A DNA stretch of 64,000 nt from Promethearchaeota archaeon. GTDB taxonomy: Archaea; Asgardarchaeota; Lokiarchaeia; Sigyniarchaeales; SOKP01. The first letter of the stretch is position 1; each line of letters begins with the position of its first letter. Positions 4,297-12,059 of this stretch are shown one piece after another. The stretch is from NCBI GenBank assembly GCA_019058245.1, contig JAHPZJ010000008.1, forward strand, positions 1 to 64,000, written 5' to 3'. The notes beneath the pieces are model-generated. The model worked only from the letters and a program-made list of their open reading frames with translations, did no database searches and was not told the DNA's origin. Both the position numbers and the translations under genes were made by a program.

Positions 4297-4755
4297 TTGG
4301 ATTCAAATTTGAAGGAACTTTACGAGTTAGGTTTTGTTTTCCGTGGATTTGTTCTTGTCAATCATATCTTAAAAAAATTACCTGTGCAAAAAGAAAAAGG
4401 TGTAAATAAGGATCTTAGAGGTGCTTTCATCTCTGCTATTAATACATTTGCTGATACCGCTTTTAATAATAACTCCTTAGAATATCTAGAATCAGGAAAT
4501 ATATTATTTATTTTCAAGATATCAGAAGTCCAATCAGAAGATAATTTTATGAAAGAACCAATAATTTTATATGGATTAGTTGATAAATCCAAGAAGAAAT
4601 CTGATAAACTTGTAAAAAAATTTTTCGAACGTGTAGATCCTATGATACAATTATTTATCCAAAAATATAATTTAAAGGATTTTACTGAATTGAATCAATT
4701 TGAGACATTTAAAGACGTAATGGAAGATTTCTTTATAAAAAAGCCTCAAATATAA
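4297..4755 (+). CDS. Stand-alone longin-like domain protein
   Basis: beta-beta-alpha-beta-beta-beta-alpha pattern; DLRGAFISAINTFA helix typical of Asgard longin domains. Confidence 0.6.
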   Translation: MDSNLKELYELGFVFRGFVLVNHILKKLPVQKEKGVNKDLRGAFISAINTFADTAFNNNSLEYLESGNILFIFKISEVQSEDNFMKEPIILYGLVDKSKKKSDKLVKKFFERVDPMIQLFIQKYNLKDFTELNQFETFKDVMEDFFIKKPQI

Positions 4756-6429
4756 TTATTCGCCCAAACACCAGCCTTTCGGTTTGACACGAGAATATTG
4801 AATTTTACCCTGATCTTTTAATAAAGAAATTTCTTTTTCAATTTGAATATTAGAGAAACCTTTTGCTTTAATATCATTAACCAATTGGGCTTTTGTTGCC
4901 ACAACTTTTTGTTCCTTTAGATATGCTAGAATAACTTCCTCTAAAGATTCACTAACAACGGCTTTTTCTTTAGAAATTGGTTTTTTAGTTTCACTTTCAA
5001 GAGCAGCTCGTAATTTCTCTTTTTTAAGTTCAACGGGTTTTTCAATAACTAATGGTTGTACTTTAGGTTTTGATTTTTCCTCAATTAAAACTTCTGCTTT
5101 AACTTCTTCAGGCATCTCCTTTGAGATTTCTTCTTCAGGTAAACTCCATATAGGATAAGAAACTTTTTCATAAATAACTGATTTTTGTGTTTTAAGAAGT
5201 GCAAATTCATCCAAGATTTCATCCTCAGAATACCCTAAATCTTCTAAGTCTTTCATTAAATCTTTTAAATAACCTTTATCTTGTAAAATAGTATAGATAT
5301 GCTCTCTTAAATTAGAAGGGATGTCCTTGATCTTTGCTATTTCTGTAATTAAATCTCCTTTTTCGGTTTCTTGAATTTCAGGGACTTTAATTTCTTGAGG
5401 AATATCCAGTGATTCTTTCTGGCCCCATTCAAAATCTGTAACATTTCGAATTGTACGATCATATCCTCCAAATATAATCTGTTTTAAATTTTGCTGTTCT
5501 TCTATACGGTAACACACTTTTTTAATCGATGTTGAGACTTTAGTCTTCCATTTCAGCTCAAAATCCTGAGAATTCAAAGAAGGATTATGAAAGATTTTTA
5601 AAGATCCATCGGCGCATCCAACAACAATTTCTTTTGCATTATCACCATCAATATCTTCAATCAATAATGAAAGAGGACGTCCTTCATCTGTTTGAATCTC
5701 TTTAATCAGTTCTCCCTCACTACTTAGAATCTTTATATGTGGCTCATCTGTACTTATGATAATTTCATTGAATCCATCATTTGTAACATCTCCAACTTTA
5801 ATATCATTAACTTGAGAATTAAAATTTCTTTGCCAAATAATATCTGGCTTATTGTTTTGAAATTGAACCAATTGAACTAAACCATTTTTTGTGCCAACTA
5901 ATAACCCATTAATAGGATCTTCAATATCTGGTATTTTTAAAAAACTTAAAGTGCAAGTAGTAACCCAAGAATCATAATAAAGTACATACTTAGGTTCTAT
6001 AGCCTTTATATTATCAAATATTCTAAGTGTTTTATCTTCACTTCCAAAAATTAGTTCAATATTTCCATCTCGAGTGAAATCTCCCGCGGTACAACAGTTT
6101 ATCCTCTTAGAGGCTTTATATCGCATTAATCCGATAAATTTCTTGGTTTCTAGATTTATTTTTAAAACCATAAAATTTCCATCACCAGCCCCAACTAATA
6201 TTTCGTCACATCCATCTCCATCAACATCAATTGGATATGTACACCTACACCATCCATCAAAAGTTCTATCATCAACGATATTTATTGTTTCATCCATTAA
6301 ATAAAGAGTTTTATCATGTCCACCAAAAGCTAAGAATTGCGTACCATTTTTGCATTTTAAAATTGAACAAGTCAGTATCGCATCCGGACATTCAAACATC
6401 CAATTTAATTGATAACGTTTTCGTATCAT
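4756..6429 (-). CDS. FG-GAP/WD-type beta-propeller protein with charged linker and probable C-terminal winged helix
   Basis: Repeats DVDGDGCDEILVG, GDFTRDGNIELIFGSED, GDVTNDGFNEIII, DIDGDNAKEIVVG, FGGxDxT; no signal peptide; C-terminal helices plus GKIQYSRVKPKGW wing. Confidence 0.75.
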   Translation of the reverse strand: MIRKRYQLNWMFECPDAILTCSILKCKNGTQFLAFGGHDKTLYLMDETINIVDDRTFDGWCRCTYPIDVDGDGCDEILVGAGDGNFMVLKINLETKKFIGLMRYKASKRINCCTAGDFTRDGNIELIFGSEDKTLRIFDNIKAIEPKYVLYYDSWVTTCTLSFLKIPDIEDPINGLLVGTKNGLVQLVQFQNNKPDIIWQRNFNSQVNDIKVGDVTNDGFNEIIISTDEPHIKILSSEGELIKEIQTDEGRPLSLLIEDIDGDNAKEIVVGCADGSLKIFHNPSLNSQDFELKWKTKVSTSIKKVCYRIEEQQNLKQIIFGGYDRTIRNVTDFEWGQKESLDIPQEIKVPEIQETEKGDLITEIAKIKDIPSNLREHIYTILQDKGYLKDLMKDLEDLGYSEDEILDEFALLKTQKSVIYEKVSYPIWSLPEEEISKEMPEEVKAEVLIEEKSKPKVQPLVIEKPVELKKEKLRAALESETKKPISKEKAVVSESLEEVILAYLKEQKVVATKAQLVNDIKAKGFSNIQIEKEISLLKDQGKIQYSRVKPKGWCLGE

Positions 6430-6580
6430 TTTTTCTCAAGATTATTTATGATTATAGAAAATAATAACAGTAGATAAAATAAATTTCATTCTTTATTCAT
6501 TTAAAACTTATTATCCTAAGTTTATTAAGCTATTAGTGCAATATAAAAAAAAATAAAAAAATAAAAAATATTTTTTAAAT

Positions 6581-10506: not shown

Positions 10507-10706
10507 AAACAACACTTCATTATTAGTAGATTTAATGTGTAAGATATTATTATGTATCCTATATACATTAAATAATGTTCGATATGATGGTAATAAATTA
10601 TTGCTTTTCATGAACTTTAAATATAACTAGTTTTACTAAATATTTGATTTTGGAGATTTTGCTATACATTGATTATAAATATTGATAAATAAATGTAATA
10701 GAAAAT

Positions 10707-12059
10707 ATGCTAAGACAAGCATTTATTCTTAACGGGAATGAGATCATATACAAAAGAGTATATGGAAATGCTTTAAGTAATTCTGAGATGGAAGACCTTA
10801 GTTTTAAAATTATATCAGAAGTAAAAAGAGCTCTTGGAAGGACTACAGGATATTTTGATTTTATTAAGTATAGAGTATCCTATGATTATGATCTGGGATC
10901 TAAGCTAACATTTATCTTTATAACTGGTTTAATGGATGATTTTTACAGATCAATTCGACCCCAATTAAATAATTTCAAAAATTTTTTCCTCAACCGTTTC
11001 AGTAATGAAATTAGTATTGTAAACCTAAAAGAATTAAATTTTGTTGGAATAAACGTATTTCTTGATGAAATACATAGGAATTTAAAGCCTAAAATTGCTG
11101 TTGTAGGTTTTGCTGGAGTTGGCAAAACAACAATAAAACAACTTATAAAAATGGATGAAATACCCCTTCAGCATGTTCCAACCATTACAGGAGAAATAGC
11201 AACAATCAAAATTGGAAAATTATTCTTTCGATTATTTGATTTTGCAGGTCAGGAGCAATTTAAATTTCTTTGGAAAGGATTTATAAAAGAAAGTGACGCT
11301 GTTCTTATAGTTACCGATTCCACGGAAAAAAATATTGAAAAAAGCAAATTCTTTTTGGATTTAAAGACAAAAGAAGTTCCCCACGCTCGAGCGGCCATAA
11401 TAGGAAATAAGCAAGATTTACCTAATGTTCTAAGTATTTCAGAAATAGAGAAAATTACGGGATTAAAAACTTATCCGATGGTGGCTAATAGAAAAGAAAA
11501 TCGTAACAAAATGATTAGAATTATTGCTGATATTTTAGATATGAGCACAGAGGACTCTCCATTATTATCTGAGCTTTTTGAAAGTACAGATTTAAGTTAT
11601 GAAACATTATTTGGTTTAGAAGGAGAACCAATTAAGGAAACCTCCTTGATAATCCCAGAAGAGTCAATTTCCTTAGAAATACCCCCAGTTGAGGAAAAAA
11701 TTGAGATTAATGAAATAACAGATAAAATAGAGCAACTAATTCCCGATGAATCTGATGTAGAAAGTCTTATTGAATTAAGCAAGAGACATAATCAAGGTCT
11801 TAAAATGCCTGTTGAAAATGCATTAATTACTTCTGAATTATTTGATGAATTTGAAAAAAATAAATCATTTGGGTATTATGATAAATTAAGTATTTTATTC
11901 ACAGCGCTCAATTGCGTCTTTTTAACGAAAACTGATCCAAAAAAATTCCCAAAATTTAGTACATTTTTTAAAAATTATAAAATGCATGTCTTCAATTCTA
12001 AGGAAATTAACCAAATTCGAAAATACTACTCAAAAGTCTTGAAACAAGTCAAAGCTTAA
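10707..12059 (+). CDS. Longin-like domain + Arf/Sar-family small GTPase + C-terminal extension
   Basis: G1 GFAGVGKT, G2 HVPT, G3 FDFAGQ, G4 GNKQDLP; N-terminal MLRQAFILNGNEIIYKRVY longin-like start. Confidence 0.85.
   Translation: MLRQAFILNGNEIIYKRVYGNALSNSEMEDLSFKIISEVKRALGRTTGYFDFIKYRVSYDYDLGSKLTFIFITGLMDDFYRSIRPQLNNFKNFFLNRFSNEISIVNLKELNFVGINVFLDEIHRNLKPKIAVVGFAGVGKTTIKQLIKMDEIPLQHVPTITGEIATIKIGKLFFRLFDFAGQEQFKFLWKGFIKESDAVLIVTDSTEKNIEKSKFFLDLKTKEVPHARAAIIGNKQDLPNVLSISEIEKITGLKTYPMVANRKENRNKMIRIIADILDMSTEDSPLLSELFESTDLSYETLFGLEGEPIKETSLIIPEESISLEIPPVEEKIEINEITDKIEQLIPDESDVESLIELSKRHNQGLKMPVENALITSELFDEFEKNKSFGYYDKLSILFTALNCVFLTKTDPKKFPKFSTFFKNYKMHVFNSKEINQIRKYYSKVLKQVKA

Follow-up and report, generated by a model that had tools for sequence, protein, structure and literature searches.

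One open question of eukaryogenesis is whether the scattered adaptor-like domains of Asgard archaea come together in complexes; it is raised directly by a 7.8-kb locus (positions 4297-12059) in the first 64,000 nucleotides (hereafter, the window) of contig JAHPZJ010000008.1 from a Promethearchaeota archaeon (GenBank assembly GCA_019058245.1). A preliminary description, made from the DNA alone, had recognized six open reading frames (ORFs) in this locus: a stand-alone longin, a cytoplasmic beta-propeller protein resembling BBS2 and ITFG2, a cytoplasmic multi-immunoglobulin (Ig) protein with motifs like those of a mu-homology domain (MHD), a zinc-ribbon microprotein, a glycerate kinase, and a longin-fused Arf-family GTPase. 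It had further proposed that the longin, propeller, MHD protein, and GTPase may constitute a split, pre-eukaryotic coat, while allowing that their co-location could be chance. All six ORFs are present and most of the fold assignments hold (Table 1); the coat itself did not stand up. Instead, the locus is probably a stretch of conserved gene order belonging to one Lokiarchaeia family, with a unit that comprises the MHD-Ig protein and the propeller alone. This pair is a lineage-specific association confined to one order, the Promethearchaeales. The tempting four-gene proto-coat is thereby removed, and one concrete, testable pair is left.

The identity of the first gene of the pair is best appreciated from its structure. 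In a template-free model of the 717-amino acid (aa) protein (predicted local distance difference test score [pLDDT] 79), the MHD is complete, because residues 74-464 align with AP-2 mu2 (7ohz_B; VIA Z 15.9, root mean square deviation [rmsd] 3.5, 225 aligned residues), followed by the mu subunits of AP-3 and AP-4 (Z 14.8) and AP-1 (13.8), delta-COP (13.6), SGIP1 (12.8), and then Syp1. Structure comparison recovers two nested beta-sandwich subdomains, A and B, in MHD topology, preceded by an N-terminal extension (residues 1-73) of low model confidence. At the sequence level, Pfam recognizes only DUF11 in the window's protein (E 2e-10); PF00928 (Adap_comp_sub) is matched by 26 of 45 members of the MHD family at E<=0.1 (best 2e-12), and through these members the family, with no fused longin, falls among the Asgard Adap_comp_sub candidates. 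The best PDB matches of the family profiles are solely mu subunits and delta-COP, at weak E-values of 0.002-0.05, and every one of the 26 best PDB matches obtained with the MHD profile is a mu subunit or delta-COP. In Foldseek searches, the mu2 entries reach TM values of 0.6-0.75 by target. The generic multi-Ig proteins that rank first by E-value for the whole 717-aa model (TM <= 0.2, rmsd ~40) were discarded as length artefacts.

Profile-profile comparisons sort the sandwiches of this protein into two repeat classes, one formed by subdomain A and the sandwich inserted before the last MHD strand (hhalign probability 84%, E 8e-6), and the other by subdomain B and the two C-terminal domains, D and E (B-D 95%, B-E 97%, and D-E 97%). 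Residues 469-614 resemble the pilin SpaD (Z 13.9), and the B half of the profile matches repeat proteins of 2,000-7,000 aa, up to 42 times each. An N-terminal hydrophobic stretch is found in 36 of 67 such giant proteins, and a hydrophobic stretch in none of the 83 short, MHD-type family members. Within the locus, no 19-residue window of any protein exceeds a hydropathy of 1.4; therefore, the locus proteins carry no signal peptide or membrane helix. We infer that the MHD arose from a DUF11-type Ig repeat of prokaryotic origin combined with a second sandwich, and that it works in the cytoplasm. Judging from segment lengths, the loop at residues 198-238 is absent from most other Asgard homologues. 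The family itself is present in 88 of 121 Asgard genomes (48 of the 60 high-quality ones), usually as one gene for 580-620 aa. As a fold, the MHD of Asgard archaea is thus complete and nearly pan-Asgard, and the DUF11-type character of its B half bears on the origin of the mu/delta-COP cargo domain.

The cargo pocket of mu2 is not retained in the 717-aa protein. Of the residues Asp176, Trp421, and Arg423 of the YxxPhi pocket, the first corresponds to Lys82, and the last strand contains no Trp, the register at 421/423 being uncertain. Among 45 diverse Asgard homologues, the Asp176 position is occupied by Asp in 13 and by Glu in 7. MHD proteins of other Asgard classes (loci L134, L135, L138, L140, L141, L160, L164, and others) may keep a cargo-like pocket better than the window's subfamily: many of them combine Asp at the position of Asp176 with Lys/Arg close to Arg423 in the last strand, again in uncertain register. 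The commonest neighbor of the MHD genes in these classes is a 230-aa gene, by eye resembling hydrolases of the metallo-beta-lactamase fold (9 loci). Also observed were a 1,337-aa MHD protein with a weak NACHT-like match (L158:6157-10167) and a 4,745-aa Heimdallarchaeota protein (P0389) with a hydrophobic N-terminus, SBBP/Big_13 repeats, and an MHD-like segment near its end (residues 4025-4243).

The second gene of the pair encodes the 557-aa propeller protein, which is matched in Pfam by the BBS7 propeller (5e-22), BBS2_Mid (8e-13), and Itfg2 (2e-8). Among PDB entries, its profile finds BBS2 first (E 2.5e-14), and ITFG2 at 2.5e-12. The propeller is of the BBS2/7 type found in the BBSome; what follows it is a linker and winged-helix (wH)-like repeats rather than the alpha-solenoid of a protocoatomer, and Pfam detects no coiled coil, GAE, or platform domain after the propeller. 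The wH-like module is basic, has a conserved wing, and is present in 1 to 5 copies across the orthologues. Its assignment is putative, with weak family matches to MCM5_C (0.004) and z-alpha (0.005); matches of its profile to PPR proteins were rejected as composition artefacts. The module also occurs in separate proteins of 240-300 aa (G037:C87, G044:C1:292943, G040:C20, and G050:C1:3966275), and in genus g2 the propeller has no tail and a separate protein of this size bears the module. Propeller orthologues were not found outside Promethearchaeales in the genomes sampled.

We consider it likely that the two proteins are functionally coupled. The linkage of MHD and propeller genes is the sole one common to the window's family and its sister families: the two lie within 0.1-5.5 kb of each other on one contig in 11 of the 15 sister-family genomes, the other four being fragmented or unlinked. 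In 9 of the 11 they are convergent, with different flanks (e.g., TFIIB and gelsolin genes), whereas in the window's genome they are co-oriented. Both are also present in two closed genomes (4.32 and 6.04 Mb). Conversely, genera g18 and g19 (89-100% complete) lack both the MHD and propeller orthologues, and their glycerate kinase gene lies 0.13-0.7 kb from an intact longin orthologue. The different junctions, on a weakly supported tree, suggest two losses. By contrast, the adjacency of longin, propeller, and MHD genes within the genus, seen in 34 of 36 congeners, was rejected as evidence, because the glycerate kinase gene is adjacent in 29 of 30 genus loci as well. The same three genes also adjoin one another in five loci from two further genera of the family.

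The strongest alternative, although in our estimation an unlikely one, is pure residual synteny, in which all the genes, MHD and propeller included, are functionally unrelated eukaryote-like genes and gene order simply decays slowly. Indeed, 30% (120/401) of nearby sister-family gene pairs are still neighbors in the window's genome, and unrelated genes are equally conserved locally, such as those for glycerate kinase, Sm, and metallophosphoesterase in the window's family or TFIIB and gelsolin in the sister family. In addition, 30 MHD loci of other Asgard groups have no propeller nearby and have longins at background frequency. Yet the pair alone links both families, is jointly absent from two genera, and has survived an inversion as well as several changes of flanks. 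As a control, we drew 800 kb evenly from three closed sister-family genomes, which yielded 148 adjacent pairs with matches in the window's genome; 59 of these are still no more than 7 kb apart, among them 11 (7% of the 148) in which the orientation has changed. The persistence of the pair is hence uncommon (~7%) yet not extraordinary.

Several further observations weigh against a functional coupling. Background retention is substantial, also for convergent pairs (6/26). The propeller-linked MHD proteins all fall into one clade (SH-like approximate likelihood ratio test 100, quick tree), and the linkage, having been inherited once, counts as a single event. One deletion can remove adjacent genes without shared function, and the zinc ribbon was lost too. 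One genome (G164, 90% complete) has an MHD member of the same clade, with no propeller orthologue found. In most sister-family genomes the two genes do not share a transcript, and this may also hold for the window's genome, where an oligo-T tract that directly follows the MHD gene stop is a possible terminator between them; archaea terminate transcription at oligo-U. A sigma-70 promoter scan, the model of which is not apt for archaea, returned chance-level counts. No target was identified for the MHD or the wH modules. A complex prediction for MHD protein residues 12-617, the last Ig domain being left out, with propeller residues 1-338 scored 0.00 twice; the controls did not fold either, and the result was counted neither for nor against binding.

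With these reservations, the reading that we prefer, a functional pair, can be put in mechanistic terms. By model and profiles, the MHD-Ig protein is an old, nearly pan-Asgard, elongated cytoplasmic scaffold of five beta-sandwiches, and the genomic evidence shows that one clade of its paralogues in Promethearchaeales became coupled to a BBS2/ITFG2-type propeller with basic wH-like tails. The two proteins most likely act as a two-chain adaptor, in which the propeller would dock on the scaffold; direct binding is conceivable, at somewhat less than even odds. Partners could be held in the MHD groove or on the Ig rod by short linear motifs of a kind different from YxxPhi, and an acidic partner or nucleic acid could be gripped by the repeated wH tails. 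In its mode of action, the pair would then resemble a stand-alone MHD adaptor of the muniscin type and not a heterotetramer such as AP or COPI. That it acts in membrane cargo sorting seems doubtful to us. Speculative to a similar degree is the joint proposition that an MHD-Ig-propeller heterodimer sorts proteins at the membrane or protrusions of Promethearchaeales, as a longin-free forerunner of MHD adaptors, and that the five-sandwich architecture records the origin of the eukaryotic MHD, with a DUF11-type Ig repeat (subdomain B) nested into a second sandwich and three domains later shed.

A second alternative, to which we give a low probability, overlaps with the two-chain adaptor and differs mainly in its target. 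Here, the pair serves in signaling or on nucleic acid, the propeller-wH protein being a regulator that binds DNA/RNA or is associated with the cytoskeleton, anchored in the cytoplasm by the MHD-Ig protein. Such a role would suit the 1-5 basic wH-like repeats with their conserved wing and the neighborhood in the sister family, where genes for a TFIIB-like protein and a two-domain gelsolin flank the propeller (L091, L095, L096, L098, L100, L101, and L105-L107). However, the wH identity comes from weak matches, TFIIB and gelsolin are not neighbors in the window's family, and wH domains also mediate protein contacts, as in ESCRT-II. The other consideration in its favor is an MHD-Ig paralogue fixed between cheA and cheW-cheC of a chemotaxis operon in six loci of two orders (the window's genome and five others), where it probably scaffolds Che proteins. 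This location fits a general scaffold adopted by different pathways rather than a dedicated coat subunit.

The chemotaxis paralogue (L111:7516-9540 in the window's genome, contig C27 ~20515-22539; also L211-L215 and L223) has cheA on one side and a gene for 280 aa on the other; a longin-domain gene lies upstream, and a gelsolin-like gene follows downstream. The surrounding gene order is the same in five congeners and in one genome of another order, and in the operons of relatives a roadblock-GTPase gene also lies downstream of the paralogue. A single locus with two MHD genes was observed, in genome G038. Its 9.3 kb (L099:4754-14060) contain a propeller gene whose assembled sequence has a frameshift, followed in the list by genes for an MHD paralogue of 583 aa, a longin-domain protein of 279 aa, and an MHD protein of 735 aa.

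The remaining genes of the locus, for the longin, zinc ribbon, glycerate kinase, and GTPase, are neighbors by history and not parts of the unit. The 148-aa protein does have a longin fold in its model (pLDDT 85; VIA Z 10-12 to many kinds of longin), so that the structure check of this protein and of the MHD protein upheld both predicted folds. It showed no preference for sigma/zeta, as CPLANE, TRAPP, VAMP7, Mon1, and AP sigma all lie within ~2 Z units. The protein has no PF01217 match, although the control likewise matched nowhere, and sequence searches alone identified neither this longin nor that of the GTPase; TRF2 matches of the longin profile are composition artefacts. The ORF was called at 4297-4755, and its start is probably the TTG at 4309, because the orthologues are 148 aa. 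The longin is not part of the unit, since it outlives the deletion of MHD and propeller in g18 and g19; in the sister families, its relatives are far from the pair. No enrichment of longins near MHD genes was seen outside the window's family, where they occur at about background. In this genome, which is 76% complete, there are genes for ~39 longin-domain and ~40 small-GTPase-like proteins, and within 5 kb of a gene one finds a longin for 12% of genes, a small GTPase for 11%, and both for 1.7%, so such neighbors are unremarkable by themselves. Of the 30 genus loci, 23 conserve the zinc ribbon, which is found in none of the sister families, and the glycerate kinase, a metabolic bystander, served as an internal synteny control.

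The GTPase is a patchy, decaying insertion unlinked to the pair. Its G domain matches Arf1 best (E 2e-16), with Arf1 and the GTP-binding protein entry 8oun as top PDB matches (E ~1e-15), and its G1, G3 (with Gln), and G4 motifs are intact. Direct searches with the N-terminal domain gave no Pfam or PDB longin match, but iterative searches started from a profile of this domain converged on the longin family of the genome. Arf and ArfR have a membrane-binding N-terminal amphipathic helix, and ArfL is reported as not directly related to eukaryotic Arf (bioRxiv 10.1101/2024.02.28.582541). The window's GTPase is without such a helix, because the longin-like domain occupies its N-terminus. Nor is its gene conserved with the pair: an orthologue (72% or more) occurs in at least ~7 of 36 congeners, a lower bound given that 41 candidates were scored per genome. 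It always lies beside the metallophosphoesterase gene, has in-frame stops in two genomes (G004 and G005), and is absent from eight family loci inspected directly.

Neither the locus nor related loci encode an Adaptin_N alpha-solenoid; weak HEAT-like matches exist on other contigs of the genome, and the control also matches in Methanosarcina. Longin profiles matched none of the 83 MHD-family representatives tested, and no longin-MHD fusion was present in the fetched loci. Accordingly, a GTP-recruited coat of sigma-like longin, mu-like MHD protein, propeller, and longin-Arf GTPase is very improbable: all four folds are as guessed, none has an export signal, three of the genes are adjacent in nearly all of the genus, and complexes need no neighboring genes, as other longins or GTPases could serve, but the GTPase is patchy and broken, the longin is kept without the pair and is no closer to sigma/zeta than to TRAPP, Mon1, or VAMP7, the propeller is not of the clathrin/COP/Sec13 kind, and Lys replaces Asp176. 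Of the proto-coat, the association of MHD and propeller in one order survives, without the longin and the GTPase as members.

Table 1. Features of the locus and its surroundings (window coordinates).
Feature	Position	Strand	Remarks
98-aa acidic helical gene	2910-3206		Conserved member of family-level block
80-aa zinc-finger-like gene	3285-3527		Conserved member of family-level block
Stand-alone longin	4309..4755	+	148 aa; family-level neighbor, outside the unit; fold by model and structure comparison
FG-GAP-type beta-propeller protein, core gene 2	4756..6429	-	557 aa; propeller, residues 1-338, then winged-helix-like module(s)
C-terminal winged-helix-like module	4762..4944	-	Conserved K and Y-x4-P-[RK]-G-[YW] wing; putative, from profile searches
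Oligo-T tract, possible archaeal terminator	6545..6568	-	Directly after MHD gene stop, in 151-bp gap; from sequence
MHD-Ig protein, core gene 1	6581..8734	-	717 aa, cytoplasmic
Two C-terminal DUF11/CnaA-pilin-like Ig domains	6599..7339	-	Residues 466-617 and 620-712; homologous to MHD subdomain B
MHD	7343..8515	-	Residues 74-464; subdomains A and B, last strand 448-464
Extra beta-sandwich before last MHD strand	7394..7657	-	Residues 360-447; resembles MHD subdomain A; predicted by model
Disordered loop inside MHD	8021..8143	-	Residues 198-238; acidic, Lys/Glu-rich; pLDDT < 50
Zinc-ribbon microprotein	8905..9054	-	49 aa; CxxC/CxxC, Zn_ribbon_4 E 4e-5; family-level neighbor
Glycerate 2-kinase	9085..10611	-	DUF4147 E 8e-72 and MOFRL; orthologues ~473 aa
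Longin-like domain, Arf-like GTPase, and 170-aa tail	10707..12059	+	450 aa; patchy paralogue, outside the unit
Metallophosphoesterase gene	12074-14137		687 aa; conserved member of family-level block
Sm-like gene	15385-15657		Conserved member of family-level block
Further longin-domain ORF	57002-57757	-	252 aa

The separate parts, namely the MHD subfamily, the longin-Arf fusions, and the BBS7/ITFG2 cluster, are already published candidates. Asgard candidates for Adap_comp_sub (PF00928) were listed by Eme et al. 2023 (PMC10307638, Suppl. 4.3.1 and Table S3), and the Lokiarchaeales entries of that table share the diagnostic motifs of the 717-aa protein, which places them in the same family and subfamily. 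The relevant passages report PF00928 and PF01217 (Clat_adaptor_s) as unfused, along with PF01217-Arf fusions and no longin-MHD fusion; for the PF00928 proteins they give only the Pfam match, with no further architecture, structure comparison, or gene neighborhood. For Lokiarchaeum, five longin-fused Arf-like GTPases and 41 longins have been reported (Klinger 2016, as cited in PMC4917890). These fusions and the window's GTPase both combine a longin-like with an Arf-like G domain, the window's copy being a patchy paralogue with a 170-aa tail. The BBS7/ITFG2 cluster of Asgard archaea and eukaryotes has likewise been catalogued (bioRxiv 10.64898/2026.10.28.762692). In the literature searched, outside which most subscription journals lie, no paper came up that deals with the five-sandwich architecture or with the linkage to a propeller gene.

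Compared with known systems, the propeller has FG-GAP-type blades in common with BBS2 and BBS7 of the BBSome and with ITFG2 of KICSTOR, but in BBSome subunits a coiled coil, GAE, and platform follow the propeller, in contrast to the linker and wH-like repeats found here. The mu subunits of AP-1 to AP-4, delta-COP, and the muniscins SGIP1/FCHo/Syp1 (PF10291) have the same nested two-sandwich fold as the MHD-Ig protein, over 208-228 residues at Z 11.5-15.9. Unlike these proteins, the window's protein has neither an N-terminal longin, which in AP mu is fused to the MHD, nor an F-BAR; furthermore, an Ig domain is inserted before its last strand, two Ig domains are appended, and Lys stands at the Asp176 position. 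Finally, subdomain B and both C-terminal domains are of the same class as the DUF11 (PF01345)/CnaA-type repeats of prokaryotic surface proteins and pilins. Unlike those surface proteins, however, the window's protein is cytoplasmic, and the repeat is nested into an MHD.

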